In this document: positions 41,944 to 60,977 of the stretch, one piece after another
Layout: every line of letters starts with the position of its first letter
Position numbering within the stretch: the stretch's first letter is position 1
Assembly (NCBI GenBank): GCA_040880005.1
Contig: JBBDJG010000035.1
Location: forward strand, 1-63,018
DNA: 63,018 nt
From: Solirubrobacterales bacterium
GTDB lineage: Bacteria; Actinomycetota; Thermoleophilia; Solirubrobacterales; JBBDJG01
Direction of reading: 5' to 3'
Made by a program: the position numbers and the translations under genes
Notes under the pieces: generated by a model
What the model saw: the letters and a program-made list of their open reading frames with translations, nothing else
The model's database searches: none
What the model was told of the DNA's origin: nothing

Positions 41944-42522
41944 ATGCGGGGCCGGGCCCGGCTGGCCTGGGCCATTGCCGTCCTGATTTCGCTGGCGATC
42001 GGCGGCTGCGGCTCGAGCCAGCCGAAGAGCGCCTATACCGCGGCGGAGCTGAAGGCGGCGGTGAAGGGGGCGCCCGAGCCGCTGGCGCGGCTGTATGCGA
42101 GGGGAGGCGAGCTGGTGGATGGCGACCCGGCCGCCTACAAGCGCCAGATCGCCGCGCTGCACGGCTACCCGATCGTGGTCAACAAGTGGGCCTCGTGGTG
42201 CGGGCCTTGCAAGCTCGAGTTTCCGATCTTTCAGGAGGTCGTTGCAAGACAGGGCAAGAAGGTGGCGTTCCTGGGCGTGGACGTGCAAGACGTGAGGGAG
42301 GACGCGGAGGAGTTTCTGAAGGAAACCCCCGTGCCCTATCCGAGCTTCTTCGACCCGCGCGGCAAGATCGCGGAGCTGCTGCCGGCAGCGACCGACGGGC
42401 TACCGACCACGTCGTTCTATGACCGCGAGGGGACGCTCGTTTACACGAAGCCGGGGCCCTACGCGACGCGGGCGGCGCTGGAGAAGGACTTGGCGCAGCA
42501 CGCGGGGGCGCCGGTCAGCTGA
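41944..42522 (+). CDS. TlpA/ResA-like thiol-disulfide oxidoreductase lipoprotein
   Basis: Lipobox-like IGGC; VNKWASWCGPC..E.P, GLPTT. Confidence 0.9.
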   Translation: MRGRARLAWAIAVLISLAIGGCGSSQPKSAYTAAELKAAVKGAPEPLARLYARGGELVDGDPAAYKRQIAALHGYPIVVNKWASWCGPCKLEFPIFQEVVARQGKKVAFLGVDVQDVREDAEEFLKETPVPYPSFFDPRGKIAELLPAATDGLPTTSFYDREGTLVYTKPGPYATRAALEKDLAQHAGAPVS

Positions 42523-42588
42523 CAGCGCAACTATGCAGGCGCATCGAACACCTGCTCAACGAAGAACCGCGCCGCCGGTTCGAGTTGA

Positions 42589-42714
42589 TCACCGAGCATC
42601 GTAGGCAAGGGCAATCGCGGCGCCACCGACCACGTACATCTCGCCTTGCACGCCGCGCTCGGCAAGCAACGAGCCGAGCGCGGTTAGCGTGTCGATGATC
42701 TCCTGGCGATTCAT
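42589..42714 (-). pseudogene. Truncated DUF6036-like nucleotidyltransferase toxin
   Basis: MNRQEIIDTLTALGSLLAERGVQGEMYVVGGAAIALAYDAR*STR; in-frame TGA just before the expected TxDxD motif. Confidence 0.7.
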
Positions 42715-42717
42715 CGC

Positions 42718-43152
42718 TCAGCACCGGTGCAGGGCGCCGCGGGAGATGAAGATTCCTCTGCGCCGGAATGCGCTGGGAGACTCGACGATCGTCATTGCCC
42801 TGAAACCGGGCACCTCGGACACGAACCAGAACCGAGCGAGGAACCGTCCTTCTGCCAGGGACCATTCCGGGCGCGCGAGCGAGTGTTTAGCCGCGAGATG
42901 CTCCGCGAGGGCGCCCAGATAGGCGTCGTAGCGTGGCTCGGCGGTCGGCTGCGGCTCGTCCCGTATGGATCGCGAACGCTGTCTGTCGTTGGCCAGCAAG
43001 CCGAACTCATCGAGCAGCTCCCGGACGGCAAACCGGAACGGCTCCCCAGCGATGACCCGCCGGGCAATGCCTGCCAAGGATTGATTGAATTGCTCGTCAT
43101 CGGGCGGGTGTTCCGCCAGCCAGTCATGCAACGTGTATTCAACCTGCTTCAT
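42718..43152 (-). CDS. Putative antitoxin partner of the DUF6036-like nucleotidyltransferase
   Basis: EP..T.EPRYDAYLGALAEHLA...RFWF...SPSAFRRRGIF pattern; ends 3 nt before the NTase start. Confidence 0.65.
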   Translation of the reverse strand: MKQVEYTLHDWLAEHPPDDEQFNQSLAGIARRVIAGEPFRFAVRELLDEFGLLANDRQRSRSIRDEPQPTAEPRYDAYLGALAEHLAAKHSLARPEWSLAEGRFLARFWFVSEVPGFRAMTIVESPSAFRRRGIFISRGALHRC

Positions 43153-43260
43153 CCGGAGCACGATAGCGGCCGGATCAGCGACGCAGGTGCTGCCGGCCAG
43201 GAGCATCCAATGAGGGGAACGAAGCGCTGTCGGTCCTCGCGTAGGCCCCGATCAGCCGAG

Positions 43261-43390
43261 CTACAGCCAGTGAACCAGGCTGGCGGGCTTGTTCGAGGGA
43301 AGCTCGTCGAGCAGCTTCGCGAGCGCGCTCACGATTCGACCCACGGTCCTCGCCGCTCCGCGGCGATACCTGCTCGGATCGACCAATACC
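43261..43390 (-). pseudogene. C-terminal remnant of a DUF5615-like PIN toxin
   Basis: VLVDPSRYRRGAARTVGRIVSALAKLLDELPSNKPASLVHWL* resembles DUF5615 C-termini; no 5' part. Confidence 0.45.
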
Positions 43391-43404
43391 AAGCCGAAGT
43401 GCGT

Positions 43405-43473
43405 CTCGGGGCGCACGCAAGCCGGGCGGCGTTGGAGAAGGACGTCAGGGAGTACTGGGGCGGCGGCTCGTAG
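43405..43473 (+). pseudogene. Duplicate 3' end of a tlpA-like gene
   Basis: CGGGCGGCG(C/T)TGGAGAAGGAC at 42469-42489 and 43423-43443 (20/21); peptide GAHASRAALEKDVREY vs GPYATRAALEKDLAQH. Confidence 0.65.
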
Positions 43474-43474
43474 G

Positions 43475-43518
43475 CCGCCGAGTCAGATTCCTCATGCGGA
43501 CCAGTAGCGCCGCCGAAG
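43475..43518. repeat. 44-bp direct repeat, left copy
   Basis: CCGCCGA(G/A)TCAGATTCCTCATGCGGACCAGTAGCGCCGCCGAAG; 43/44 identical to 44213-44256. Confidence 0.92.
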
Positions 43519-43526
43519 CGATGGCT

Positions 43527-43928
43527 TCATGCGGCGATCGCAAGAACCCGCAGGCCCGGCACGCGACGGAAGTCGCCCGCGTTACGCGTTGCAACTCCGA
43601 GGCCATGCGCCAGTCCGGTGGCGGCGATCCACAGATCGTGCGCTCCGACTGTCTCGCCTTGTGCGGCCAACTCTGCCCATATCTGAGCATGGACGCGCGC
43701 CACCGGCTCAGTGACCGGTATCGCCTCGATTCCCGCGAGTAGATGCTCGACGAACGCCTGGCGGCGGGCACGCCTGTCTCCAGCCGATCGATGGACTCCG
43801 TGCAACAGCTCGCTGATCGTTATGACGCTGATCGCGCGATCCTCTTCCCCGACAAGCGCGTCGATCGCGTTCGCAGGTGCACCCCGCTCGCGATCCGCCA
43901 GCAGGTCGGTGTCGATCAGGACGGCCAG
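43527..43928 (-). CDS. vapC: VapC PIN-domain toxin (probable CTG start)
   Basis: (M)AVLIDTD, ISVITISELLHG, HDLWIAATG, VATRNAGDF.RVPGL. Confidence 0.88.
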   Translation of the reverse strand: MAVLIDTDLLADRERGAPANAIDALVGEEDRAISVITISELLHGVHRSAGDRRARRQAFVEHLLAGIEAIPVTEPVARVHAQIWAELAAQGETVGAHDLWIAATGLAHGLGVATRNAGDFRRVPGLRVLAIAA

Positions 43929-44182
43929 GGACTCTCCGGCAGGCCCGCCTCGGTGCGAATCGCATCGAGGTCGGCCCCGAAGTCCGAGTCGACCGACGGC
44001 GCGGAGCGAAGCAAATCGCCGAACCGGCTCGCCGGCAGGAGGGTGCTGCGCACCGGCCCGATGACAGCCACCGGCGAGCCGTTCCGCACCACCTCGGTCG
44101 CCTCGCCAGCGGCAGCACGGTTGAGAATCTCCGAGAAGTTGCGAGCGGCCTCCGTGGCAGTGATCCTGTTCACAGCGCCCAT
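43916..44182 (-). CDS. vapB: Phd/YefM family antitoxin
   Basis: ITATEAARNFSEILNRAAAGE...V.RNGSPVAVIGP; overlaps vapC. Confidence 0.88.
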   Translation of the reverse strand: MGAVNRITATEAARNFSEILNRAAAGEATEVVRNGSPVAVIGPVRSTLLPASRFGDLLRSAPSVDSDFGADLDAIRTEAGLPESPWPS

Positions 44183-44185
44183 TGT

Positions 44186-44201
44186 ATCAGATTAATCTGA
44201 T
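44186..44201. promoter_or_regulatory. Perfect 16-bp palindrome, probable vapBC autorepression operator over a leaderless -10
   Basis: ATCAGATTAATCTGAT immediately upstream of the vapB ATG. Confidence 0.7.
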
Positions 44202-44209
44202 TAGGTGAT

Positions 44210-44644
44210 TCACCGCCGAATCAGATTCCTCATGCGGACCAGTAGCGCCGCCGAAGGCGTGACCTTGCCCGTGGCGTAGGTCGACAGCCGGGAGGCCGAG
44301 GTTCCGATCCGCGACGCGAAGGCCGCCCGGGAGAGTCCTGATTCGTGGATCAGGTCCGCGACCTCGGCGGCGACCGCGGCGCGCTCCTCGGCCTCCGCTC
44401 GCGCGCGAGCGCCGGCGATCACCCGCTCGAACGCGTCCGTCACACCGTAAGGGCGAGTGCCGACAAGGGTTTCCTCGACCTGGCGGGCGACCGACCCCCA
44501 GGGGTCGCGCACGATGGCCCCGGCCAGCCGCCGCCAATCGGCGAGGCCGCCGCGCTCCAGCGCGGCGCGCACGGCCTCCAAGGGCCAGACTTCGACGTCC
44601 TGGTCGGGCGACGCCGTGACGTTTCGGAACGCGAGCGCGCTCAC
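44210..44644 (-). CDS. XRE-type HTH protein (putative antitoxin)
   Basis: C-terminal SGLSRAAFASRIGTSASRLSTYATGKVTPS; GTGA overlap with the upstream NTase. Confidence 0.82.
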   Translation of the reverse strand: MSALAFRNVTASPDQDVEVWPLEAVRAALERGGLADWRRLAGAIVRDPWGSVARQVEETLVGTRPYGVTDAFERVIAGARARAEAEERAAVAAEVADLIHESGLSRAAFASRIGTSASRLSTYATGKVTPSAALLVRMRNLIRR

Positions 44645-45333
44645 TCGGCCACCATCCTTGCGGCTACTTGCCCGAGCGTTTCGACGACCGCGCTCCAGTC
44701 TTCCCAGCGGGGGTCGAGTCTGCGGTAGGAAGCGAGCTGGCGGGTGGCGGTCGGGTCGGCGGGACGAGGATCGGCGAGCTGCCGCACGAGCTGCGAGGCG
44801 ATGCCGTCCTCGCTCTCGTTCTGGTCGGCGTAGTAGCCGTCGATTGCCGCCAGCACTGCCGCGGCCGGCTTGATACCAGCGTGCTCGGCAAGCGCCGCGA
44901 CATCGAGGTAGTCGCGGGTCATGTTGCGCCGAACGATCAGGAAGGCCTTGATTCGCAGCGTCTCATCGAGGGTGGGTACGGCGACTTCGTCGCCCGAAGG
45001 CAGGCGAAGACTTGAAACCTCGAGCGGCGCGGTGCGGACCATCTGGCGCACGCCGGCCTCCACTCCATCGAGGTTCCCGAGGATCACCTTCCCCGGGGTG
45101 ACGCGATTCGTCGCCCAGCCCTCGTCGGTCTCCAGCGCGTCGAGCACCATCTCGAAGCGACCGGCGAGATCGGCGACCACGTGATCGTGGTCGAGCGATT
45201 CCCGGTGGTCGTCGTGCACGATCGCTGCCGTGCCGCCGATGAGCACCGCGTCGGGAACGAGACGTTGCAGGTGGGCCGCCGACTCGAGCACGGCCAGCAG
45301 TTGGGGATCACGGTGGCCGAGGCTTGATGACAC
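44641..45333 (-). CDS. AbiEii-like nucleotidyltransferase (putative toxin)
   Basis: LIGGTAA...HRESLDHD (GG..RxSxDxD) and K......RNMTRDYLD motifs. Confidence 0.75.
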   Translation of the reverse strand: MSSSLGHRDPQLLAVLESAAHLQRLVPDAVLIGGTAAIVHDDHRESLDHDHVVADLAGRFEMVLDALETDEGWATNRVTPGKVILGNLDGVEAGVRQMVRTAPLEVSSLRLPSGDEVAVPTLDETLRIKAFLIVRRNMTRDYLDVAALAEHAGIKPAAAVLAAIDGYYADQNESEDGIASQLVRQLADPRPADPTATRQLASYRRLDPRWEDWSAVVETLGQVAARMVAE

Positions 45334-45547
45334 TCGGTCACGTTATCAGATCCGATATGAAGTGCGCTATCCGGACCCGGCCGGCGTCAGACACACCGCC
45401 GCAGCAGTTCGGCGAGCGTGACCTCGCCGATCCGCCGTGACCCGCTCGCGAGAGAGCGCTCGCAGTTGCTCAGGGACCGCAAGGCCTTCCTCGCTCAGCC
45501 CGCCTCAATGCGAATCACCGCGAATCACCGCGGATCGGCACCCTCCT

Positions 45548-45973
45548 CTAGCCATCGCGGACCCGATCATTTGCAAAGAGCGCAACGAGCGCCTGATGCA
45601 CCACAAGGCCAGCACCAAGACATGCGAGGACTGCTGCGATGCGCCAAGCAGGCGTGTCAATGGCATAGGAGAACGGTATCGCAGCTACCAGCGTTACCAA
45701 TCCCCCGTAGTAGAAGACCCTCGCCGTCAATGGTGCAGGAGGTTTGGGGGGAAACCGCCAGCTCCATAAGTCGGCACGCGACAATAGCCCGGTAGTTAGC
45801 AAGAGGCAAACGGCCGTGCCAGCGCCAACAAGTTCCGGACTATCTGACAAAGTAGCCAGGACTATCGGGGTTAGAGCCACTACGCCCAGGCCACCAATAC
45901 ACAGCATCAGATCCCGGTGCGATGTATGGCCCTGCCCTCCACGGCGTCCAAGCTGAGCTTGGCGCTGAGTCAT
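45548..45973 (-). CDS. Putative Rhs immunity protein, ~4 TM
   Basis: 141 aa; ATGA overlap with the Rhs stop; visibly lower GC; four hydrophobic segments. Confidence 0.65.
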   Translation of the reverse strand: MTQRQAQLGRRGGQGHTSHRDLMLCIGGLGVVALTPIVLATLSDSPELVGAGTAVCLLLTTGLLSRADLWSWRFPPKPPAPLTARVFYYGGLVTLVAAIPFSYAIDTPAWRIAAVLACLGAGLVVHQALVALFANDRVRDG

Positions 45974-48900
45974 CGCGGGGGCCCTGTTGCGGCAACTACG
46001 CATCCCCAGGCTGACGCCGCTATTCCGTACGGATTTCTTGCCATGATCGAAAGGGCCATTGGAACTCCCGCGACATAAGCACACCTTCTCACTGGCGCCT
46101 TGGCATCCTCTGGGAGCGACTGGTAGGCGGTCAACCCGACCGCCAAGGCAGGTCCCGCGACCGGGATCGGACCGAGAATTGCATAGTTCCTTACTGCTCG
46201 CTTTGCTACTTGACCCACCTTCTTCGCAATCTTCCTGGCACTGAGTCCCGAGGCGCCTGCGCGTCGCCGTCTATCTACCCTCCGCAGGTAGCGCCGCACA
46301 TCGCGCCTTGCCCATCTCGCGGCCCCTTGGCACCATGCCTGTGTCTGCCCGCAACCCGTAGTCCGGCTCGTGACTCGTTTCTTCTTGCGAGATTTCGAAC
46401 CGTCCAGATCAAACGAGTTCACCGGGTCCTGACCCGCGTAGTCGTAGGCGTTGTCCGACCCGCCAGGAACGGGGTCGGTTTGTAGGAAGCGACCCATCTG
46501 CGGCACATACACCCGTGCGCCCATCGTGATCGCGCCTGAGGCGAACTGGGTCTGGCGCTCCTTGCCTCCCAGCCAGCCGTAGCGGGTATCGGTCGGCGGC
46601 GCCAGTGGCTCTTCGGGGCGGGGTACGCCGAACTCGTCTGACTCGAAGGTGTCGAGGATCGTTGCGGTCACCGAGGCGATCGCGATCACGTCGCCGTGCA
46701 GGTTCGTGAGCTGGAACTTGACGCCGTCCTGGGAGTCCTGGATCGCGCCGAGGTCGCCTCCGATCCCGCCGATCATGCGCTGCCACTCGTTGTTGCCGGA
46801 ATCGGTCCAGCTCGGCGAGTCGGAGTCGTCTGAGTAGTGCATCGTCTCGTCGGGCTTGCCGGTCGATTGCTTGATCCGCGGGCGGCGGTTGGGGTCGAGC
46901 GTAAACGTCTGCGTCTTGCCGGCCTGGGTGAGGCTTCGCACGAGGTCGTTGGTGTAGTAGGTGGCGCTCAGCTGGTCGCCTCCTGCGGCAGTTGCCGGTG
47001 TGGTCGTGATGCGGCCGAACGCATCGTATTGGAAGCCGGCGTCGGTGATGCGGTCGGCCGCATCGTAGGTGTGGTCGATCGCCTGGCCCTCCCCGGCGGT
47101 CTGGCACTGGGCGTTGGGGCCGCGGGATACTTGGCGCGTTCTGTTGGAGTCGGCGTCGAAGGAGTAGGTGCGGGTCGTGCAGCCCTGACCCGACGGCGTG
47201 TCGGCGACCAAGCTCAGCCGGCCGGCGGCGTCGTAGGTGTAGGACTGGCTCGACAAGGAGCTGTCGTGTGTGCGCCACTGGCCGTGGATCGACTCGGTCA
47301 CGCCCTCGTCGAGCTGGGTGCCGGTTCCCGCAGCGCCGCACTGGCCGGAGCCGGTCATGTAGCAAAGGCGCGTGGGGCTGCCGGACTCGTCGTAGAACGT
47401 GCGGGCGGTGAGGCCGTTGGGCAGCGTCTCGGTCAGCTGGTTGCCGTCGGCGTCGTAGGTGGCGGCGAAGGTGCCGGCCGCGAAGTCGGTGAGTCCCGTG
47501 ACCAGCCCCGTAACGGGGTCGTAGGAGTAGGTCTGGGTGTCCTTGCCGTCGTTGACGGTCTTTGGTCGGCCGAGAAGGTCGTAGGTGGTCTGCGACGTGG
47601 TGCCGTCGGCGTCAGTGTAGTGGGTCTGCCTGCCAAGCGAGTCGTACTGGCGCGTGATCGTCTGCTCGTTGCCCGTTTGGACGAAGATGCGCGTGGTGGT
47701 TGGACGACCGGTATTCGGGTCGTAGTCGGTCTGGACCTGATCGAGCGAGGTGCCCTGCGTGCCCGAGACCGACTGGGTACGCGGCCGCCCGGCAGCGTCG
47801 TAGGCGGAGATCGCTACCTTCTGATCGTTGCCGACCTGATCGGTTGCTCTTGTGGGCTGATAGAGGCTGTTGTACTCGGTGGTCGTTTGCGGCAGGTTGG
47901 GCACACCGGGCGTGTTCGGCTGTGCTTCGGGTAGCGACTTGCACGGAAGCCAACGCCACTCCGCGTGACCCATGCAGCCGGCAAGCTGGCTGAACGGATC
48001 TGCGTTGTAGTAGACGGTTCTCATGGTGTTCACATCGCCACCGGGCCCCGGAGTCCGGCTCCACATGACGAGACCATTGCCGTAGTAGCGAACGTCAGAA
48101 CGCAAGTTGAGGCCCTCCGGATCGACCGTTGTCGAGGTCGGCTGGCGCAGCGTCAGACCGAGGTCCCCCTGGTCCTGGTACGAGGTCTTGGTCACGCGCA
48201 CGTCGCGGTCGCTCGCCTCGCCCGGGATACGCGCCCCCGCCGTCTGCTTGGTCGGCAGGTGATAGCGCTCGCCGGTCGGCGTTCGGGGCAGGGCGCTGCC
48301 GTCGGGAGCCTTGTCGTACTCGGTCGTGGAGTGAGCGCGGGCCTGCACGAGCTGACCATTATCGAGCTTCACCTGATGCAGCGGCCCAAGCGTCTCCAGC
48401 AGGTCAACGCCGTCCGGGGTGTAGGTGTTCTGGGTGTCGAGCTGCTGCGCCGTAACCGCCGAACTGCTGCCCGTGGCGAGCGCCCGCAGGCGGTTGGTCG
48501 CCCCCAGCGTTCGCTTGACGTTGTCGAAGCCGTCGTACTCGGCGGTGGTGATCGCTGCGCCGGGGGAGGCGACGTTGACCTCGCGTCCCAGGCGATCGAG
48601 ATAGTGGATCGTCGCCTTCGAGTACTGGCCCGCGCTCGCGTCGGGCGGGAGGATCGCGATCGCGTCGGTGGGCACGGCCTGCTGGGCCCAGTCGTCCACG
48701 GCGCCCGGGCTCATGTCGTAGGGGGCGCCGGAGCCCGAGACCGCGACGTTGTAGTCCATCGTCCAGGTCGAAGTGCCCTGCGAGCACAGGCAGGCGCGGC
48801 TCACGCTCGCGAGACGGCCCGTGTTCGGATCGCCGCCGGCAGCCGCGTGGTTGATCGTGAAAGGCTCTTCGCCCGCGGGCGTGACCTGCGTGATGTGCCC

Positions 48901-51900
48901 GGCGGAGTCGTAGGAGTACCTCGCCTTCAAGGGCGGCGTAATGCGACCGTCCCAGGCCTCGATCAGGCGATCGTTCTCATATGAATACTGCGCGACCGTC
49001 CTCCAACCCGCGTACGAGTAGAACTCGATGCTGCCGATCTGAGCCGTCGTGTTGTAGTTGAACCTCAGGAAGCGACACTTGACCGCGGGTGATGCGTCCG
49101 GGCACTCGGACGCCGAGGATCCCGCGGCGTACGCGCGGTCGATCTTGTACTTGCCATCGACCAGCCCGTAGCCGTAGGTGATCGTGTCGGCGGAGCCGGG
49201 TGGCTGAATCGCGGTCACGGGATAGACATTGGTCGCGTCCTGGCTCGTGAACACCGTCGTCACGTTCTCCAGGTCAGTTACCTTGAACTGGTTGGGGCTC
49301 GGGCGCTTCAGCAACAGGTCCTCGCTGCCCTCCTCCGGCTGCCATTCTCCCTCCAGGTTCAGAAAGGAGAATTTCGTGCCGTCGGATGCGGTTATCGTCG
49401 CCTGTTCGTACCGCTCGGAGACGGTTACCGGATCGCCGTACTCGTCCTCGTACGTGTCCGTGAAGGTCTTCCAGCCAGTTTCGAGCCTGGAGTAGCTGCT
49501 GTTCATAGCGTCCGACGGAAGGCTTGCGGTCCAGCCGAACCCGAGCGCCCCGCCATGATCGTTCTCCCTCGTCAGTTGCCCATCGCCCCCGCCGTTCGGG
49601 TCGCGCGAGTTGTAGGTGCGGGAGAAGTTGAGATCGGCGTTGTAGGCATCGATCGACACGTCGTCGGCCGACATCGAGAAGTTGCCGGTCAGCAGATCGA
49701 CCGAGCCGGGGCCGATCGACTCGACCGCGTCCTTGGTGGCGGGCGCCTTGCGATCGAGCGTGAAGCGGATCGCGTCGCTGGTGTAGGAACCGCCCCCGCC
49801 GCCCGTGAACAGGGCGCGCACATACACCGGGCCGTCGTAGCCGGTCAGACCGGTGGTCGTCGCTGCGTCCCACACGAGCGTCGGGCTCAGTCCGCCGGAC
49901 AGGCCGACGGGGCTTGCGACCGACTGGTTGAGGTCGTTCTTGAGCTGGCCGGCAGGCACCGGCGACCACTGGCCCTCGGTCCCGGTCTTGCTGAACCAGA
50001 GCGCGATCTTGTCGAAGCCGGCGGCCTGCGCCTTGGCGCGCACCGTGATGCGGCGGCGCGTGCGCGTGCCGTCGTCGGGCTGGGTCAGCAAGCCGGGGTT
50101 GTCGAGGCGCGCCAGGCCCGCCTGGGCAGCGCCGCCAACCGCCGTGAAGTCGCCGCCGACCAGCAGCCGTTCGCGATCGGCGTCGAGATCGCGGATCGCA
50201 ACCGGGGATCCCGTCGCGGACACGTTCGGCGCAAGAGGGAACGCGAGCCCCGACTGGGGATCGAGTCCGGCAAGTCCGTTCCGCTGAACTCCCGCGATCT
50301 GCGAGAAGCGTCCGCCGACGAACACGCCGGCCGGGTCGGCGTCGATCGCATCGACCGGGCCGTCGGGGCTCGGGTTCCACGAGGTGACCGTCTGCCCCTG
50401 CAGCGAGGCAAGCCCCGCGCGGGTCGCGCCTGCGATCGATGTGAAGCTCCCGCCCACGTACAGCGTATTCCCGCTGAGCGCCATAGAGGTCACCGCACCG
50501 TTGCACGGCGGTGTCCAGGCCCCGCCGCCGGTCACGGTAGTCACAGACCATAGCTCTCTGATGTCCTGGCTCGGCTCACCGTTCTTGTTGAAGTGGCCCG
50601 CCAAGTACACGGTATCGGCGCTAGCCTCAATCGCGTTGACCTGTCCGACAAGTTCGCTCGACAAACCCGGAGTCCAGGAGAGCAAGTCTCCAGTATCGAT
50701 GCTGAACGCACCGGCGTTCGAGCTACTGACACCGCCGTGACTGAGACTTGCGCTGCCTACATAGATCCTTCCGACCGCGGACGCGAGCGCTCGCACCTCG
50801 CTCGCCTGCGGGCTCCAATCGACCAGTCCGCCGGTGTCCTGCATGAACGCCGCGAGGTTCTGCCGGGTGCTGCCGGCGATGCTCGAGAACGCACCACCCA
50901 CATACAGCTTGCCCTCGGCTAGCTCGATCGCGTTGACTCTGCCGTTGGGGTCTGGGCTCCAGCCGGTCGGCACACCGGTCGTGTCGCTCAGCTCGGCAAG
51001 GTTGTGTCGTTCGACAACGTTGGCCGCCCGGAAACGCCCGCCGGCAAATACGCGTCCACCGTACAAACCGATCGTCTTGACCGAGTTGCCGAGGTTCGGG
51101 TTCCAACTCGTCGCGCCGGCGCTGCTCAAGTCGAGCGCGGCGATCTTGCCGCGAGCCTGCCCGCCGATCGTCGTGAAGTCGCCGCCTGCATAGACCGTGG
51201 CGCCCGACACGGTGATCGAACGCACGCGCGCACCCGAGGGCGCACTCGGATTCCACGACTGCGGGGCGCCGCTTGCCGCATCGAGTGCAGCGATCCCGTT
51301 GCGAGTCGCGCCGCCGACCTGCGAGAACGCGCCGCCCGCGTAGATCCGCGTGCCGGACGCAACGAGCGCGTCCACCGACCCGTTCGAGTTCGGGTTCCAC
51401 GGGGCCGCCTGGCCGAAGGTCGAATCCACCTGGGCGATGTTGCTGCGCGGCTGGCCGCCGACGCTCGTAAACGTCCCGCCCAGGTACACCGACCCAAGCG
51501 ACGTGGCAATCGCCGAGATCGATCCGCTTTCAGGACCCACGTTGGGGTTCCAGCTTGTAGCTGTCGCGAGCGTCTTGTCGAGTTCGGCAACTCGCCGCCG
51601 CTGCTGGCCGCCGATGTAGTCGAAGTCTCCTCCCACATAGAGTTTGCTTTCATCCAGAGCAATCGCCCTGACGAGCCGCGGGTAGGGATATGGAGCCCAG
51701 CCACCCACGGCTGCGTTGGTCGGATTGAGCTTCGCGAGCCCGTTGCGGGTCACTCCGCCAACGTGCGTGAACGATCCCCCCACGTACAGATCCTGCCCGT
51801 CGTTCGCCAGCGCATACACCGAGCCTCCGCTCGCCCCCGGGTCCCAGGCCGGATCGACCGTGCCGTCGGCCCGGATGTGGGCGAGGTTGGCGCGCGGATA

Positions 51901-53025
51901 ACCGCCGACGCTGGTGAACTCCCCGCCGATGAACCAGCCTCCCAGTCCGTCGGGCGCGCTCGCGCGCACCTCCACTGCGGGCGATCCCGAGGAATCCGAG
52001 CCGGCTACCTCTGGGTAGGCGAGGTCGGGCAAGCCGCCGGTCTGTGCGAGCGACGTGAACGCGCCCACGCGGGTGCCGACCGAGTCGAAGTCGCCGCCGA
52101 CATAAACCTTGTCCTCGCCGTGGAGCGCGATCGCGTTGATCTTCGGCACCGGGCCGCTGCCGCCGTCGGGAACCTGGGTCGGCACCGGCGTCGACGAGTA
52201 GCGTCCGCGCGGCGGGTCGCAGGAGTTCGGGCCCGGCGGAACCAGCGTGCGGATGATCGAAGCGTAGGAGTTGTCCACGTACACGTCGATCGGTGCATGC
52301 TGCTCCATCGCGTCCGTGTACAGGCCGAAGCTGGCCCGCGTGCCGTACTGCCCGTAGTTGTTGGGTGCGCTCGAATCGACCACCTTCTCACCGTTGAGGT
52401 ACACCTCGTTGATCGCGTGCTCCGGGTCGCCGGCAGGCTTGTCGGAGAACTTCTGGCGCACCATCAGCCAGTTCCAGCAGCCCTCCTTGAGCGCGAAGGG
52501 GGATCCGATCGCATCAGCGGAGTCGTTGAACGTGTCGTTTGAGTGGCCGCGCACCAGCCGCGCCTTGCGGTCGCCCTCGAAGACGGCGATGCCGCCGTAG
52601 TGATCCACTCCCGCGCTCGCCGCGTCCCAGCGCAGAATGTCGAAGCGATGGCGCTGCTTGGGACCGGCGCCCGTGGTCGTACCCGGCGGAAGGTAGAAGG
52701 CAGCGCCGTAGGAGGCGTCGGCCAGGCCCGAGGCCCAGTTGTAGGAGCCCATGGCGGCGCGACCGAGCGATGTGTTGCCGTTGTAGGAGGCCTTGGCGTA
52801 GGCGCTTCCGTCGTAGGCAGACGGCGGGCCGGTGGAGCGCGTGAAGCCGAAGAACTGGTCCTGCCTGATCGAGTCGTACTGGGAGGAGATGTCGGCCGGC
52901 TCGTGGGTAGCGGTGCGCCCGCAGGCGCCGAGGCCGAGCGCGGCCGCGAGGACCAGCACCGCCGCCAGCGTGTGCCCACCGAGGCGCTTCGGGGACCGAC
53001 CGGACATCTGCCTCACCATCGCCAA
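45970..53025 (-). CDS. Lipoprotein Rhs/YD-repeat polymorphic toxin with propeller repeats
   Basis: LGAC lipobox; 14 YVGGxF repeats; GSVDLLTGNF (DUF6531-like); YD repeats; RVYVPQMGRFLQTDP...YAGQDPVNSFDLDG core end; GGAGGGAGG SD. Confidence 0.93.
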   Translation of the reverse strand: MAMVRQMSGRSPKRLGGHTLAAVLVLAAALGLGACGRTATHEPADISSQYDSIRQDQFFGFTRSTGPPSAYDGSAYAKASYNGNTSLGRAAMGSYNWASGLADASYGAAFYLPPGTTTGAGPKQRHRFDILRWDAASAGVDHYGGIAVFEGDRKARLVRGHSNDTFNDSADAIGSPFALKEGCWNWLMVRQKFSDKPAGDPEHAINEVYLNGEKVVDSSAPNNYGQYGTRASFGLYTDAMEQHAPIDVYVDNSYASIIRTLVPPGPNSCDPPRGRYSSTPVPTQVPDGGSGPVPKINAIALHGEDKVYVGGDFDSVGTRVGAFTSLAQTGGLPDLAYPEVAGSDSSGSPAVEVRASAPDGLGGWFIGGEFTSVGGYPRANLAHIRADGTVDPAWDPGASGGSVYALANDGQDLYVGGSFTHVGGVTRNGLAKLNPTNAAVGGWAPYPYPRLVRAIALDESKLYVGGDFDYIGGQQRRRVAELDKTLATATSWNPNVGPESGSISAIATSLGSVYLGGTFTSVGGQPRSNIAQVDSTFGQAAPWNPNSNGSVDALVASGTRIYAGGAFSQVGGATRNGIAALDAASGAPQSWNPSAPSGARVRSITVSGATVYAGGDFTTIGGQARGKIAALDLSSAGATSWNPNLGNSVKTIGLYGGRVFAGGRFRAANVVERHNLAELSDTTGVPTGWSPDPNGRVNAIELAEGKLYVGGAFSSIAGSTRQNLAAFMQDTGGLVDWSPQASEVRALASAVGRIYVGSASLSHGGVSSSNAGAFSIDTGDLLSWTPGLSSELVGQVNAIEASADTVYLAGHFNKNGEPSQDIRELWSVTTVTGGGAWTPPCNGAVTSMALSGNTLYVGGSFTSIAGATRAGLASLQGQTVTSWNPSPDGPVDAIDADPAGVFVGGRFSQIAGVQRNGLAGLDPQSGLAFPLAPNVSATGSPVAIRDLDADRERLLVGGDFTAVGGAAQAGLARLDNPGLLTQPDDGTRTRRRITVRAKAQAAGFDKIALWFSKTGTEGQWSPVPAGQLKNDLNQSVASPVGLSGGLSPTLVWDAATTTGLTGYDGPVYVRALFTGGGGGSYTSDAIRFTLDRKAPATKDAVESIGPGSVDLLTGNFSMSADDVSIDAYNADLNFSRTYNSRDPNGGGDGQLTRENDHGGALGFGWTASLPSDAMNSSYSRLETGWKTFTDTYEDEYGDPVTVSERYEQATITASDGTKFSFLNLEGEWQPEEGSEDLLLKRPSPNQFKVTDLENVTTVFTSQDATNVYPVTAIQPPGSADTITYGYGLVDGKYKIDRAYAAGSSASECPDASPAVKCRFLRFNYNTTAQIGSIEFYSYAGWRTVAQYSYENDRLIEAWDGRITPPLKARYSYDSAGHITQVTPAGEEPFTINHAAAGGDPNTGRLASVSRACLCSQGTSTWTMDYNVAVSGSGAPYDMSPGAVDDWAQQAVPTDAIAILPPDASAGQYSKATIHYLDRLGREVNVASPGAAITTAEYDGFDNVKRTLGATNRLRALATGSSSAVTAQQLDTQNTYTPDGVDLLETLGPLHQVKLDNGQLVQARAHSTTEYDKAPDGSALPRTPTGERYHLPTKQTAGARIPGEASDRDVRVTKTSYQDQGDLGLTLRQPTSTTVDPEGLNLRSDVRYYGNGLVMWSRTPGPGGDVNTMRTVYYNADPFSQLAGCMGHAEWRWLPCKSLPEAQPNTPGVPNLPQTTTEYNSLYQPTRATDQVGNDQKVAISAYDAAGRPRTQSVSGTQGTSLDQVQTDYDPNTGRPTTTRIFVQTGNEQTITRQYDSLGRQTHYTDADGTTSQTTYDLLGRPKTVNDGKDTQTYSYDPVTGLVTGLTDFAAGTFAATYDADGNQLTETLPNGLTARTFYDESGSPTRLCYMTGSGQCGAAGTGTQLDEGVTESIHGQWRTHDSSLSSQSYTYDAAGRLSLVADTPSGQGCTTRTYSFDADSNRTRQVSRGPNAQCQTAGEGQAIDHTYDAADRITDAGFQYDAFGRITTTPATAAGGDQLSATYYTNDLVRSLTQAGKTQTFTLDPNRRPRIKQSTGKPDETMHYSDDSDSPSWTDSGNNEWQRMIGGIGGDLGAIQDSQDGVKFQLTNLHGDVIAIASVTATILDTFESDEFGVPRPEEPLAPPTDTRYGWLGGKERQTQFASGAITMGARVYVPQMGRFLQTDPVPGGSDNAYDYAGQDPVNSFDLDGSKSRKKKRVTSRTTGCGQTQAWCQGAARWARRDVRRYLRRVDRRRRAGASGLSARKIAKKVGQVAKRAVRNYAILGPIPVAGPALAVGLTAYQSLPEDAKAPVRRCAYVAGVPMALSIMARNPYGIAASAWGCVVAATGPPR

Positions 53026-53106
53026 GACTTCCTCCCTCCCATCCGCCCGGCCGGGAAAGGGGGTCGCCCGGCCGGATTGATGGGTCGTGGCTCAGTTATG
53101 GCCAGA

Positions 53107-53136
53107 AGTTTAAGTGAGTTCCTACTTGTTTGTCAA
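53107..53136 (-). promoter_or_regulatory. Sigma70-type promoter for the rhs gene
   Basis: TTGACA-18 nt-TAAACT on the minus strand ~80 nt upstream of the start. Confidence 0.65.
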
Positions 53137-53199
53137 GCCCGGCCCTCGAACGGCGATCGGCACGGCTCCGTCCCACTCCAGCAGCGATAATCGAGTTCC

Positions 53200-56366: not shown

Positions 56367-57983
56367 TCAGTGAACGGCGGACTCGTCCGGGGTACGCCCG
56401 ACAAGGCGGGCGGCGAAGCTGCGTCGCGGAGCGCTGCCGTTACCGGCTGCAGCGGCGACCAGCTCCTCTTCTTCCTCGACTGCGATCTCTTCGTCGGATT
56501 GCCCGGGAGCCGGGAAGGAGTAGTCGTCGATGCGCTTCTGGAGGTTCAGCTCGGCGTCGAAGTCGGCGTCCTCGCCGTGGCGGTAGCGGACGTCCTTGCC
56601 GGCCAGCACGCGGATGAAGATCTCGACGTACTCGGCGTCGAGCTGCTCGCCGGAGACGCGCTTCAGCTCCTGGATCGCCTCGAACGAGGAGACCGGCTCG
56701 CGGTAGGAGTCGCGCGCAGTCATCACGTCGTAGGTGTCGGCGACCGAGATCATGCGCGAGAGCTTGGGTATCTCGTCGCCCTCGAGGCCGCGCGGATAGC
56801 CCTCGCCGTTGATGCGCTCGTGGTGCGCGAGGATGATCTCGCCGACGGGGCCGTAACCCTCGACGTCGGAGACGATCTTCGCGCCCTGGTAGGGGTGCAT
56901 GCGGATCGTGTTCCAGTCGTCCTCGGTAAGCGGCGCGCCACCCTTGAGAATCGAGTCGGGGAAGATGAACTTGCCGATGTCGTGCAGCAGCCCGGCCGTG
57001 TGAACGAGGTCCTGCTCCTCTTTGGTACACCCAGCCTCGACCGCGATCTCGCGCGCGTAGCGCGCGACGGCGGCACAGTGCCGCGCCGTCATCTTGTCCC
57101 GCAGGTCGAGCGTGTGCATGAGGGCGGAGAGCACGCCGACTTGGAGGGACGCGAGCTGGCGTGTGCGGCCGTGGAGTTGTTTGGTGCGGGTTTCGAGCTT
57201 CTCGGCACGCTCCTCCGAGAGGAGAAGTTGGCCAAGAAGAATCTGAAACGAGATCAGGACGATTGCGCAAAGACCAACAGCTGGCAAGCCAACGCGATAG
57301 TAGAAGTAAGCAATTCCCAGAACCAGTAGTGCGGAAAAGAGCTCAGAGGCCAAGACAGGAGGAATCGCACGCTTTGCTACGACGATCGGAGACTTGCGCT
57401 CGACATATCCGGTGTAAGACATCATCATCGCTATGTTGCAAGCGAGGGCCACACACAACGCCACGAAGGCCACGAGATAGAAGGATCCGTCCGAAGGAAC
57501 TACGTTCATGGTCTTCGACATGGCGAAGAACGAGATGCCGCCAATGAGCGGGAACCACGCGAACGTCACGCCGTTGATAAGCAACTCGCGTAGCGGGTAC
57601 CGCTCGGGGAGCCAGCCCACCAACACCGCGGACACGCCAACGATTGCGGCTGGCGTTCCGCCGAGAAAGAGCATCGCCAAAACTAGCGCCAGGAAGCTCC
57701 CGGATACGACCAGGTGGGTTGAACCCCTGGCCTTGACTGCAACACCTTCGCTTACTGCTGCAAAGACAACGAGAAGCCCCAGGAGAGACATATCCCAGGT
57801 TGCGTCGGGACCCACGGCGGTCGCAAGTGCGACTGCCGCGAGCAACGCGAACCACTCCAATGCGATAACCCATGGGCCGGGTCGGCTTTGCAGGACGAGA
57901 CCTCCCGAATCAAGTCGATTGCCGGAACTATCGACCGAAAATGCGACTTTCTTTAGGAGTTTTGTAACGATCATTGCTGACAC
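56367..57983 (-). CDS. Membrane-sensor HD-GYP cyclic-dinucleotide phosphodiesterase (intact motifs)
   Basis: ~8 TM N-terminus; D..TARH, LLHDIGK, IRMHP..G, HHERINGEGYP.GL, SVADTYDVMT..SYR; start uncertain. Confidence 0.9.
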   Translation of the reverse strand: MSAMIVTKLLKKVAFSVDSSGNRLDSGGLVLQSRPGPWVIALEWFALLAAVALATAVGPDATWDMSLLGLLVVFAAVSEGVAVKARGSTHLVVSGSFLALVLAMLFLGGTPAAIVGVSAVLVGWLPERYPLRELLINGVTFAWFPLIGGISFFAMSKTMNVVPSDGSFYLVAFVALCVALACNIAMMMSYTGYVERKSPIVVAKRAIPPVLASELFSALLVLGIAYFYYRVGLPAVGLCAIVLISFQILLGQLLLSEERAEKLETRTKQLHGRTRQLASLQVGVLSALMHTLDLRDKMTARHCAAVARYAREIAVEAGCTKEEQDLVHTAGLLHDIGKFIFPDSILKGGAPLTEDDWNTIRMHPYQGAKIVSDVEGYGPVGEIILAHHERINGEGYPRGLEGDEIPKLSRMISVADTYDVMTARDSYREPVSSFEAIQELKRVSGEQLDAEYVEIFIRVLAGKDVRYRHGEDADFDAELNLQKRIDDYSFPAPGQSDEEIAVEEEEELVAAAAGNGSAPRRSFAARLVGRTPDESAVH

Positions 57984-58012
57984 CGGTCAAGATTTTTCGC
58001 TCAACGGCAAGG

Positions 58013-58040
58013 AAAAGGGCGCTCCCGAACGAAAGCGCCC
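58013..58040 (-). terminator. Intrinsic terminator/attenuator upstream of the HD-GYP gene
   Basis: GGGCGCT-TTCGTTCGGG-AGCGCCC followed by TTTT on the minus strand. Confidence 0.7.
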
Positions 58041-58048
58041 TCCCAAGC

Positions 58049-58131
58049 TCAGTAAGAAAGTTGATCTTTCATCCCGCCCCGAGAATCATCGGCGGAACAA
58101 TTTCTGCCTGCTATCGACGCGAGTAAGCCAT
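58049..58131 (-). other. SD-led mini-ORF or degenerate small-peptide gene
   Basis: GGAGGTG-7 nt-ATG: MAYSRR*QAEIVPPMILGAG* then, shifted, MKDQLSY*, ending just before the terminator. Confidence 0.4.
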
Positions 58132-58338
58132 TTGCAAACACCTCCAGACGACAAGCTGCCCCGTAGCCTGGACGAATGTTGGAGTCCAAGCTCACTTTCC
58201 GCTGCATATGAGGCCATACCACGTATGGCCGGTCAATTTGCCGGCCTTGGACTGCAAGGTTCGATGCAAAGCTAAAGTCTGCCATCGCCTTGCCGAAAGC
58301 GCCTTTTCTTGCCCAATCCTCATGAAGAGCGGACATTC

Positions 58339-59613
58339 ATGCGTCAGGCAATAGCTCCTCTCCGACTGCCAGGATTTCGGCCGCTCGCCCTCGGCTACAC
58401 AGTCAATGAGCTGGGTAACTGGCTTGGTGACGTTGCGCTTGCGATCTTGGTTTTCAACCACACTGGGAGCCCGCTGGCGACCGCTGGACTCTTCCTCGCC
58501 ATGCAGTTCTTGCCGGCACTCACCAGCCAATTCGTGGTCGTCAGAGGTGAGATGGCAGGCGCGAAACGGGCGCTCCCGACCATTTACGCCGCTGAAGCGG
58601 CCGTCCTCCTATTGCTGGCCCTTCTTGCTGAGAACTTCAGCTTGGCAGGCATCATTGTCCTTGCGGCGCTTGATGGGACACTTGCGATCGCAGCACGAGT
58701 TCTCCTGAGAGCAACAAGCGCCACGGTCCTAGAGCCGGTAGGCCTGCTCAGAGAAGGCAACGCGATAATTAACGTTGCATTTACTACCGCAAGCATGATC
58801 GGACCCGTGGTCGCGGGACTGGTCGTGACGGTATACGGCACAACGACGGCACTCTTGCTCGATGCGGGCTCGTTTCTCGCCGTGTCCCTGATACTGCTGA
58901 TTGCAAGATCCGTCCCGGACCTTAGAAACCGCCAAGCGAACTGGAGGAAAGAACTTCGAGCCGGGATTCGATACGTATGGGAACGCTCAACCCTTAGACG
59001 ATTGATCTGGGCCAACGCCGCGATAGTGCTCTTTTTGACCGCTGCCGTCCCGATCGAGATCGTATTGGTCAAGGAATCGCTCGGCTCTGGTGACGCTGGA
59101 TACGGAGTCCTGCTCGCGGCATGGGGAACTGGAATGATTTTGGGTGGTCTGCTCTTCGTCGCGGCGAGGCAGGTGTCACTTCAAGTACTTCTCATCGCGA
59201 GTGCAACTCTAGTCGGTTGCTCATACATCGGAATGGGAATGGCACCAAGCCTCAGCATTGCGCTCGTTGCTTCTATGGCTGGGGGTGTCGGCAATGGCGT
59301 CCTGTGGGTCGCAACCGTGAGCGCGATACAGGCCATAACGGCTCGCGAATTCCAGGCACGAGTCATGGGAGTACTCGAGCTAACTGCCTCTGCTTCACCG
59401 GGACTCGGGTTTCCTTTGGGCGGGTTGCTCGCGTACCTTTTCTCACCCCGAACGAGTTTCGTGGTGAGTGGGATCGGGGCACTCATCGTCGTACTCGTGG
59501 CCAGTTTCATCCTCAGGAACAGCGTGTGGGCGGATAGTGAACCCAGCGATGACGTGTCCGACGTGGAGAGTCTGGTTGCACTGGAGCCGATCAGCCTTCC
59601 TAATCGGCCCTGA
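58339..59613 (+). CDS. MFS transporter (DHA3/macrolide-efflux-like)
   Basis: FRPLALG...LGNWL..VAL, GSPLA, ~12 TM, FQARVMG. Confidence 0.9.
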   Translation: MRQAIAPLRLPGFRPLALGYTVNELGNWLGDVALAILVFNHTGSPLATAGLFLAMQFLPALTSQFVVVRGEMAGAKRALPTIYAAEAAVLLLLALLAENFSLAGIIVLAALDGTLAIAARVLLRATSATVLEPVGLLREGNAIINVAFTTASMIGPVVAGLVVTVYGTTTALLLDAGSFLAVSLILLIARSVPDLRNRQANWRKELRAGIRYVWERSTLRRLIWANAAIVLFLTAAVPIEIVLVKESLGSGDAGYGVLLAAWGTGMILGGLLFVAARQVSLQVLLIASATLVGCSYIGMGMAPSLSIALVASMAGGVGNGVLWVATVSAIQAITAREFQARVMGVLELTASASPGLGFPLGGLLAYLFSPRTSFVVSGIGALIVVLVASFILRNSVWADSEPSDDVSDVESLVALEPISLPNRP

Positions 59614-59735
59614 GGCGGTCCCCCCACCTTACGTCGGCTGACTTCCGTCCTTCCACACGACTGACCAAGTGGTCAGTTCCGAAAAGCAGCAAGGCTCTCT
59701 TGCTTCAACCCTAAGTGTCGGCTTATATTGGGCAT

Positions 59736-60974: not shown

Positions 60975-60977
60975 GGC

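Follow-up and report, generated by a model that had tools for sequence, protein, structure and literature searches.

A predicted lipid-anchored Rhs/YD protein with a jelly roll, 14 propeller blades, and an unclassified tail in a Solirubrobacterales bacterium

We analyzed 63,018 nucleotides (nt) from a Solirubrobacterales bacterium (assembly GCA_040880005.1, contig JBBDJG010000035.1, positions 1 to 63,018), which we call the window, and found one intact Rhs/YD gene encoding a protein of 2351 amino acids (aa). The protein begins with a lipobox cysteine (Cys35), which is followed by a jelly roll, 14 DUF5122 blades, an immunoglobulin (Ig)-like domain, a DUF6531/YD shell, an autoprotease, and a 141-aa tail. 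Besides this domain order, sequence analysis and search tools gave a conserved lipobox, the catalytic residues of the autoprotease, polymorphic tails in the family, a coupled downstream open reading frame (ORF) with four predicted helices, and an accessory location. By every feature testable here, the sequence places the protein in the Rhs/YD polymorphic class, and it is very probably a polymorphic toxin. It is an intact protein of rare architecture within a known class of weapon; its prodomain is lineage specific and predicted to be lipid anchored, and its tail and putative immunity partner are unclassified. The full model, in which the tail of a lipid-anchored Rhs protein attacks the membranes of neighbors and the overlapping ORF immunizes the producer, has a slightly better than even chance of being right.

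RESULTS

A complete gene with a confirmed domain order

The gene is the longest ORF and the sole Rhs-core ORF in its own assembly (G000; 1.56 Mb, 35 contigs, 91% complete). An alternative start is the ATG two codons after the TTG. One 11.3-kb contig of run X1, possibly the source of the window, carries the ORF without differences. A Pfam scan of the whole protein matched DUF5122 (E value of 4e-29), RHS_repeat (1e-13), Rax2 (7e-8), and DUF6531 (2e-7). The Rhs core model TIGR03696 from NCBIfam matched above its cutoff, as did PF05593 and TIGR01643 (YD repeat). A phmmer search of the whole protein against the PDB gave 0 matches. A first-pass annotation, made from the sequence alone, had described a full-length ORF with a signal, repeats, DUF6531, YD repeats, and a core end, all of which we recovered in the stop-free frame and the profile matches; it had missed the Ig-like domain (aa 985 to 1095) and the overlapping ORF downstream. 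The homologues P0035 and P0036 show an identical domain order. Therefore, we rejected an assembly chimera.

Table 1. Positions in the window of the Rhs/YD gene, its domains, and associated features
Feature	Positions	Strand	Basis or remarks
Rhs/YD gene, 2351 aa	45970..53025	-	TTG start, GGAGG 5 nt upstream; no internal stop
Predicted lipoprotein signal peptide, aa 1-35, lipobox LGA-C35	52921..53025	-	K/R, uncharged stretch, and lipobox pattern
Beta-jelly-roll domain, PL20/Cip1/X122 type, aa 36-275, lineage enriched	52201..52920	-	AlphaFold2 and fold comparison
14 DUF5122/Rax2-type blades, aa 284-980	50086..52176	-	Motif count, Pfam, AlphaFold2, Foldseek
All-beta Ig-like linker domain, aa 985-1095	49741..50073	-	Strand pattern; many Rhs proteins of the order have it ahead of DUF6531
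DUF6531 plug, YD-repeat shell, and Rhs core, aa 1096-2210	46396..49740	-	Pfam, NCBIfam, core profile
Aspartyl autoprotease motif, R2171, D2184, D2206	46396..46515	-	Predicted cut after S2210
Polymorphic C-terminal cargo, putative toxin, aa 2211-2351	45970..46395	-	No homologue; GC3 drop
Putative immunity gene, 141 aa, four hydrophobic segments	45548..45973	-	ATG overlaps the Rhs stop (ATGA)
Sigma70-like promoter match, TTGACA-18-TAAACT	53107..53136	-	About 80 nt upstream of the Rhs start
Accessory insert between thioredoxin-like gene and nfeD	42523..53199	.	Comparison of relatives' loci, Pfam

A conserved lipobox and no adaptor for a specialized secretion system

We called a lipoprotein signal from a basic n-region, a hydrophobic h-region, and a lipobox with a conserved Cys, a pattern taken from general knowledge, together with the presence of Lgt and LspA in the host. 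Both of these genes were found in the G000 genome, and the LGA-C lipobox occupies aa 32 to 35 of the Rhs protein. The jelly roll opens with a T/S-H-E motif, and a Cys lies exactly five residues ahead of it in 21 of the 23 N-terminal copies; the other two have a signal peptidase I (SPI)-like Ala in one case and a start within the domain in the other. None of the seven proteins with an internal jelly roll has a Cys at this position. The full signal pattern fits 15 of the 21 Cys-bearing proteins, the remaining six having been called from within the hydrophobic stretch. Because the domain has two further conserved cysteines that are present irrespective of the lipobox, Cys35 is likely unpaired. 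These observations sustain the proposed signal for Sec export and signal peptidase II (SPII) processing, and we predict with high confidence that the protein is lipidated at Cys35 after Sec export. Solirubrobacterales actinobacteria are single-membrane cells without an outer membrane, in which a lipid anchor sits beneath the wall. The LLGC of P0032 was dropped as a candidate lipobox; the close relative P0050 has a Ser there, and both proteins continue into an SPI-like site.

We set aside delivery of this Rhs protein by a type VI or type VII secretion system. Pfam and NCBIfam detected no PAAR, VgrG, WXG, or LXG adaptor in the protein, in agreement with the first-pass annotation. The 91%-complete genome yielded neither WXG100 nor PAAR, and its sole EccC match was far below the cutoff; this genome scan did not include family searches for VgrG or LXG.

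The jelly roll has a polysaccharide lyase fold and probably lies on the producer side

The AlphaFold2 (AF2) model of the jelly roll, built from 19 sequences (predicted local distance difference test score [pLDDT] of 80.5; predicted template modeling score [pTM] of 0.84), matched the PL20 glucuronan lyase 2zzj (VIA) with a Z score of 19.4 and a root mean square deviation of 2.8 Å over 201 residues, starting from model residue 1. Cip1 (Z of 17.8), X122 (Z of 16.7), and PL36 (Z of 16.4) followed, and Foldseek was concordant, with a template modeling (TM) score of about 0.6. Because the best structural matches are PL20, Cip1, X122, and PL36, a polysaccharide lyase fold is nearer than the LamG fold that had been suggested alongside it. 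The motifs that led to this suggestion, YGAAFYLP, WNWLMVRQKFS, and NEVYLNGEKV, lie at aa 106, 184, and 206, and the homologue P0035 matches PF14099 above the cutoff. TrGL (2zzj), Cip1 (3zyp), X122 (8q28), and the PL36 enzyme Aly36B have the same fold over the whole domain (Z of 16 to 19), with only 11 to 15% identity.

In the family alignment, the invariant residues look structural, and we saw no invariant groove His/Tyr pair of the PL7 type. No lyase activity is demonstrated for Cip1 or X122 (PMC10916295). These are two of the three closest folds, and thus the shared fold shows no function. On this basis, the jelly roll is probably a non-catalytic binding or anchoring module. The domain begins 1 to 2 residues after the lipid Cys, with no linker, and so would sit on the membrane of the producer. 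It is therefore unlikely to be a receptor-binding module directed at the target, as had been proposed, and its place in the model is probably on the producer side.

The domain was found in 7 of 17 genomes of the same family versus 4 of 383 other genomes of the order. Eighteen longer jelly-roll proteins comprise 14 sulfatase fusions, 2 proteins with Tol-type repeats, 1 tandem jelly roll, and 1 Rhs protein, and a profile search with the jelly-roll alignment was dominated by the fused sulfatases. The lipobox-jelly-roll unit also heads a complete teneurin-like protein, L073 (TTR, NHL, YD, and a DUF4258 tail), a second teneurin-like protein, L072/L053, that is split in two frames, and a compact Rhs protein, L074. 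We note that L073:2236-8928 (+) and L072:4474-9657 (+), both from genome G005, are lipobox-jelly-roll teneurin-like proteins in a single-membrane actinobacterium, and that in G005 three YD genes headed by a jelly roll lie within about 60 kb, together with a propeller-Ig remnant. P0124 to P0139 are predicted lipoprotein sulfatases with an N-terminal jelly roll, for which we found no description in the literature examined.

Fourteen blades likely form two propellers

Thirteen canonical repeats match [YFLWV][VLAIF][GA]GxF between aa 308 and 955 at a spacing of 46 to 57 aa, and one degenerate repeat at aa 755 fills the single 99-aa gap, which upholds the earlier count of 14. In 2000 shuffles of the region the motif occurred 0.07 times on average and at most twice; an extra match at aa 1848, in the YD region, was discarded as chance. 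The AF2 model of aa 36 to 1095 (39 sequences; pLDDT of 83.5; pTM of 0.79) has four-stranded blades, and the blade block is mostly at a pLDDT of 80 to 97. The top Foldseek matches for the propellers were BT4663, BT4673, PorZ, 2ymu, and tandem WD40 proteins (TM of 0.2 to 0.57). Thus, two 7-bladed rings are likely, given the repeat count, the model, and the tandem-propeller matches. The hairpin is atypical in repeats 1 and 8, which are seven apart, a pattern that would be compatible with crossovers from ring to ring. The Ig label for the domain that follows was assigned from the strand pattern of the model.

The autoprotease is predicted to be intact

The core profile matches 12 solved Rhs and teneurin-like sequences (best E value of 1e-16), and the spacing of the R/D/D motif is identical in 10 of 10 family members. 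The aspartates of RhsA, D1324 and D1346, are 22 residues apart and the cut lies at +4 (PMC8765631); D2184 and D2206 are also 22 apart. In BiTLP, the Arg (R2103) lies 13 residues before the first Asp (D2116) (PMC13018210), as does R2171 here. The autoprotease is therefore predicted to be intact, and a cut after S2210 would release 141 aa.

There is also a putative N-terminal cleavage point, G1107/S1108, at the start of DUF6531. The next residue is S or T in 9 of the 11 family proteins and in 10 of the 14 other loci; A, G, R, E, or N occupies the position in the rest. Cleavage occurs before P305 in RhsA and at G723/S724 in BiTLP, and Streptococcus suis WapA is cut just ahead of DUF6531, leaving the wall anchor behind (PMC12704120).

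A tail unlike those of the family and a coupled ORF

The tail has a net charge of about +26, with Arg or Lys at 30 of its 141 residues, and consists of two amphipathic cationic helices (moments of 0.91 and 0.82) followed by Ala/Gly-rich hydrophobic segments. Third-position GC content (GC3) is 0.86 over the gene body and drops at the core/tail boundary: the tail has 0.60 and the next ORF 0.56. From its sequence and its overlap with the Rhs stop codon, this ORF, with four predicted helices, is likely the immunity gene. A complex prediction for the tail and the downstream ORF, folded without alignments, scored 0.01 and was used neither way. We also observed two short contigs in run X2 that are about 88 to 90% identical to positions 45576 to 45746 and 45828 to 46067, at the tail end and the immunity ORF; each has lost one base and gained another within 7 nt, which keeps the frame, and they possibly represent a related strain with the same cassette. 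Two further short contigs, one from X2 and one from X4, match the core at about 85 to 92% and diverge from 46404 to 46415, which is weak additional evidence for the model that we favor. The tail and immunity region has no coverage in runs X3 and X4, an absence that carries no weight.

We searched for the family with aa 30 to 1100 and took the best 120 of 1207 matches, which are mostly unrelated secreted proteins with the same repeats. Among the matches listed, at least nine have the complete propeller-Ig-DUF6531-YD chassis (P0021, P0022, P0032, P0035, P0036, P0043, P0092, P0106, and P0116), P0050 has a truncated one, and P0081 is teneurin-like. The nine full-length homologues share the chassis, with a core identity of 42 to 49%, and none shares the window tail. 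Thus, by sequence comparison, the C termini of the family are polymorphic. Just 2 of 55 pairs among 11 tails are related, with the window tail in neither, and so the C termini are not the invariant ends that the first-pass annotation would have read as those of an adhesin. New cargo families may be represented by the two related pairs, which have 32% and 40% identity. The C termini of P0021, P0032, P0035, P0036, P0043, and P0106 are strongly basic and apparently beta rich, with no Pfam match.

The N termini vary as well: a lipobox with a jelly roll; a signal, a beta-helix, and a jelly roll; two jelly rolls; a disaggregatase-repeat type; or a bare signal. The propeller module is retained in all 10 members. 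Across 401 genomes of the order, and among the matches listed, the full blade-Ig-DUF6531 junction occurs only in G000 and G005, and 75 genomes match it in part, with either Ig/DUF6531 or blades alone. By this comparison, the architecture is a rare fusion of two modules that are common in the order. When metagenomes were scanned for this junction, 11 loci matched, all of them in the blades alone. The closest full-length genomic relative is in G005, a genome of the same family, and related cores are present in 12 of 41 genomes sampled. A tree of 19 cores needed 3 label changes and did not resolve a single origin of the propeller fusion.

Pfam searches of the tails of 13 relatives found four toxin-type matches, to phospholipase A2 (two tails), DUF6973, and DUF4258, and two of the four fall below the cutoff; the other nine tails had no meaningful match. 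DUF6973 we take to be a lipid-directed lipocone domain. Downstream ORFs were scored for 10 relatives: 5 have at least two hydrophobic segments, 2 have one, and 3 have none. All three lipid-directed tails are followed by an ORF with 3 to 4 hydrophobic segments, and the DUF4258 tail is followed by a soluble one. The ORF downstream of the window gene is of the membrane type, as after lipid-directed tails. Genome G024 holds phospholipase A2-tail Rhs genes and an orphan DUF6973-tail cassette (L017:3223-12818 and L018:9589-12392), and its phospholipase A2-tail and DUF6973-tail genes each precede a small membrane-protein gene.

DISCUSSION

A proposed mechanism and what weighs against it

In the model that we favor, Lgt and LspA would lipidate and process the signal, and the jelly roll would lie against the membrane or wall glycan of the producer as an anchor. 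The propellers and the Ig domain would serve as a stalk, with a possible glycan-binding cleft. The YD repeats would form a barrel in which D2184 and D2206 cut after S2210 and the 15-kDa tail is caged. The barrel would probably be freed at the DUF6531 boundary, as in WapA, RhsA, and BiTLP, and would act at short range; whether it is shed from the anchored half we regard as an even call. The tail may then bind the target membrane from outside and permeabilize or depolarize it, and the membrane-type downstream ORF would protect the producer. We consider a membrane a somewhat probable target. The hydrophobic tail of BiTLP permeabilizes Escherichia coli only if exported (PMC13018210).

Several observations weigh against this model. 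The tail has no homologue, and therefore membrane damage is a step that we infer: phmmer gave 0 matches among 1.84 billion representatives, the best Atlas score was 0.82, to unrelated clusters and with low recognition, and Pfam and motif searches pointed to no family and to no catalytic motif, nuclease or otherwise. The most hydrophobic window of the tail scores a modest 1.64 on the Kyte-Doolittle scale. Because 9 of 10 family tails are strongly basic (+15 to +31; P0092, +4), beta-rich ones included, charge does not mark a membrane toxin. The downstream ORF at 45548 to 45973 also lacks relatives (191 candidates, none at an E value of ≤1; no Pfam or NCBIfam family), and its GC3 is low, which leaves the ATGA overlap and hydropathy as the grounds for calling it coding. 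At the P0036 locus there is no coupled downstream ORF, the nearest being 160 nt away, and our own assembly holds no orphan tail cassettes. RhsA and WapA have a Pro directly after their N-terminal cut, and none of the family proteins or other loci compared has one at the corresponding putative site. Finally, the lipobox is present in 3 of 10 full-length members (P0035, P0036, and the window protein) and absent from 7, so that tethering is not a family constant, which weakens the earlier claim of a membrane-tethered weapon. The proteins behind the lipobox and family counts are kin and hence not independent.

Alternative explanations

It is possible, although unlikely, that the first-pass reading applies in its strict form: the protein would remain in one tethered piece, and contact-dependent delivery would be triggered when the propellers or the jelly roll engage a receptor or glycan of the target cell. 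The conserved lipobox, the missing N-terminal cleavage Pro, and the retention of the propellers in all 10 members while the N terminus varies would suit such a protein, as would the double propeller and Ig layout, which recalls the ectodomain of the heparin sensor BT4663, the top Foldseek match. However, the TM score to BT4663 is just about 0.2 to 0.3, and the jelly roll follows the lipid Cys without a linker, its model aligning to PL20 from the first residue. Both the jelly roll and the propellers would lie on the producer side of the barrel, the anchor would be under the wall in a single-membrane cell, and 7 of 10 members have no lipid anchor.

An improbable alternative is that the tail enters the target cytoplasm, where, for example, its Arg-rich half would bind nucleic acid or ribosomes and the hydrophobic end and the membrane ORF would serve entry. 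With Arg or Lys at more than a fifth of positions the tail would be suited to this; nucleic-acid-directed tails are the commonest class of polymorphic toxin (PMC3482391), and a sister lipobox-jelly-roll YD protein has a DUF4258 tail. However, the DUF4258 tail has a soluble partner and the immunity candidate here is of the integral-membrane type, and the searches of the tail found no nuclease or other catalytic motif or family.

Least probable is that the protein is not a weapon and is an adhesin, glycan sensor, or teneurin-like matrix-delivery protein with a non-toxic cargo or identity tag as its tail: the lack of catalytic motifs or Pfam matches in several basic, beta-rich family tails, the carbohydrate-associated folds of the N-terminal half (14 of 18 other jelly-roll matches being sulfatase fusions), and the single copy without orphan cassettes in the assembly would be expected of it, yet the autoprotease is intact, as it is not in metazoan teneurins (PMC13018210), the low-GC3 tail has a coupled ORF and the tails are polymorphic, relatives have known toxin tails, and the gene lies in an island with toxin-antitoxin modules.

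We also considered a broader proposal, in which the lipobox-jelly-roll unit is a mounting plate that evolved in this family of Solirubrobacterales and fixes three YD barrels (double-propeller Rhs, teneurin-like, and compact Rhs) and sulfatases to the membrane of a single-membrane cell, and a clamshell double-propeller glycan sensor, similar to BT4663 of Bacteroides, gates a new class of membrane-active toxin. We think it improbable; if true, the protein would combine receptor and toxin in one membrane-tethered YD molecule triggered by a ligand, and would have converged on the anchored teneurins of animals.

Comparison with known systems

WapA of Bacillus subtilis and S. suis shares with the window protein a signal peptide, an N-terminal anchoring region, DUF6531, the YD shell, an autoprotease of the DPxG-x18-DPxG type, a variable tail, and a downstream immunity gene (putative in the window), and some WapA tails are toxic solely on export (PMC12704120). 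However, where WapA has wall-binding repeats (PMC12704120), the window protein has a predicted lipid anchor, and in place of the wall-binding region it has a jelly roll, propellers with 14 blades, and an Ig domain. We saw no neighboring sortase gene in the window, and the N-terminal cut site lacks its Pro. With a lipobox instead of an SPI signal and no wall-binding family in the Pfam scan, the protein is not WapA by its defining domains; it is likely still similar to WapA, and to BiTLP, in action.

BiTLP and other teneurin-like proteins (TLPs) share the YD barrel, the R/D/D autoprotease, a tail of about 15 kDa, a downstream immunity gene (again putative in the window), and variable N-terminal adhesion modules; those of Myxococcota have SPII signals, and the BiTLP tail is hydrophobic and membrane active (PMC13018210). 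The G723/S724 cut of BiTLP (PMC13018210) resembles the G/S at the start of DUF6531 here. We did not assign the window protein (P0001) to this group: it has no TTR or NHL match, which its sisters P0081 and L073 both have, the Pfam scan did not report TEN_YD-shell, and its propellers are DUF5122 and stand before the plug. Gram-positive TLPs are reported to use SPI (PMC13018210), whereas this actinobacterium has a lipobox. The TcdB/TcaC type was rejected as well; SpvB and an FG-GAP-type propeller are absent from the Pfam scan, and the blades are DUF5122.

The closest precedents for the N-terminal layout are the APD1/APD2 and MAFB-N prodomains, in which a lineage-restricted domain follows a signal and lipobox and precedes variable effectors, as here, and Sec-exported toxins headed by laminin G, whose N-terminal jelly-roll-type domain is proposed as a producer anchor; effectors with a lipobox and prodomain are known from Amoebophilus (PMC3482391). 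The window unit differs in its domain and phylum, and it heads three YD chassis as well as non-toxin sulfatases. BT4663, BT4673, and PorZ likewise have tandem beta-propellers followed by a beta-sandwich, but identity is 10 to 13%, TM is low, the repeat family is another one, and the window protein has no signaling domain. The host group has no outer membrane. SitA of myxobacteria, which is also a lipoprotein with a polymorphic C-terminal toxin and cognate immunity, uses outer-membrane exchange, and its characterized toxins are nucleases (PMC10433427).

The concept is not new, in that lipid-anchored YD toxins and hydrophobic tails have been published (PMC13018210 and PMC3482391). The architecture itself, which the first-pass annotation did not recognize, was not found in the published literature searched, which included few subscription papers and excluded the supplementary architecture tables of PMC13018210 and PMC3482391. 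In PMC8078820, DUF5122 and RHS are only modeled as separate families, and our literature search found nothing linking Solirubrobacterales with Rhs or Thermoleophilia with polymorphic toxins.

The gene lies in an accessory insert

The insert of 10.7 kb contains the Rhs pair, an AbiEii/helix-turn-helix (HTH) pair, and a Phd/PIN pair. At 9 of 9 loci from relatives, the thioredoxin-like gene lies ≤1.5 kb from nfeD with no Rhs gene, and the helicase and SPFH genes keep the same order. The tail has no blastp match among 121 proteins and no tblastn match in its own genome or in the relatives' loci. The 3' end of the thioredoxin-like gene recurs within the island as a degenerate (72%) copy (42454 to 42506 versus 43408 to 43460), which suggests integration at the end of that gene.

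The AbiEii-family nucleotidyltransferase gene and the HTH gene after it (44210 to 45333, minus strand) resemble a type IV toxin-antitoxin system and lie directly downstream of the immunity candidate. The Phd/PIN (vapBC-like) pair is flanked by a 44-nt direct repeat (98% identical; 43475 to 43518 and 44213 to 44256). The repeat is a duplicate of the HTH gene's 3' end, such as a site-specific insertion would leave, and the 762-bp unit is a separate contig in both X1 and X2. A 162-aa ORF (42718 to 43206, minus strand) at the left end of the island has no Pfam or NCBIfam match and resembles, by eye, the antitoxin half of a further pair. Upstream of the Rhs gene, one sigma70-like match was observed versus 0.7 expected by chance, so that for the one at 53107 to 53136 position alone is suggestive. 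Beyond the island, GC content is 0.57 to 0.62 over about 5 kb (57000 to 62000) with major facilitator superfamily transporter and HD-domain genes, possibly a second acquired segment. The G000 assembly is 1.56 Mb at 91% completeness versus 2.0 to 3.9 Mb for genomes of the same family, yet its longest gene is the 7-kb Rhs gene.

Significance

The polymorphic toxin concept is unchanged by this protein. What it adds is a predicted lipid-anchored YD toxin in a single-membrane bacterium of a group that is abundant in soil and sediment; the Gram-positive examples published so far rely on cleaved signals and on domains that bind the wall. It offers a mobile, lineage-specific, probable anchoring domain common to toxins and sulfatases, and a putative tail/immunity pair without a homologue. 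The protein also bears on how Sec-exported Rhs proteins of 250 to 300 kDa cross the Gram-positive wall and reach their target.

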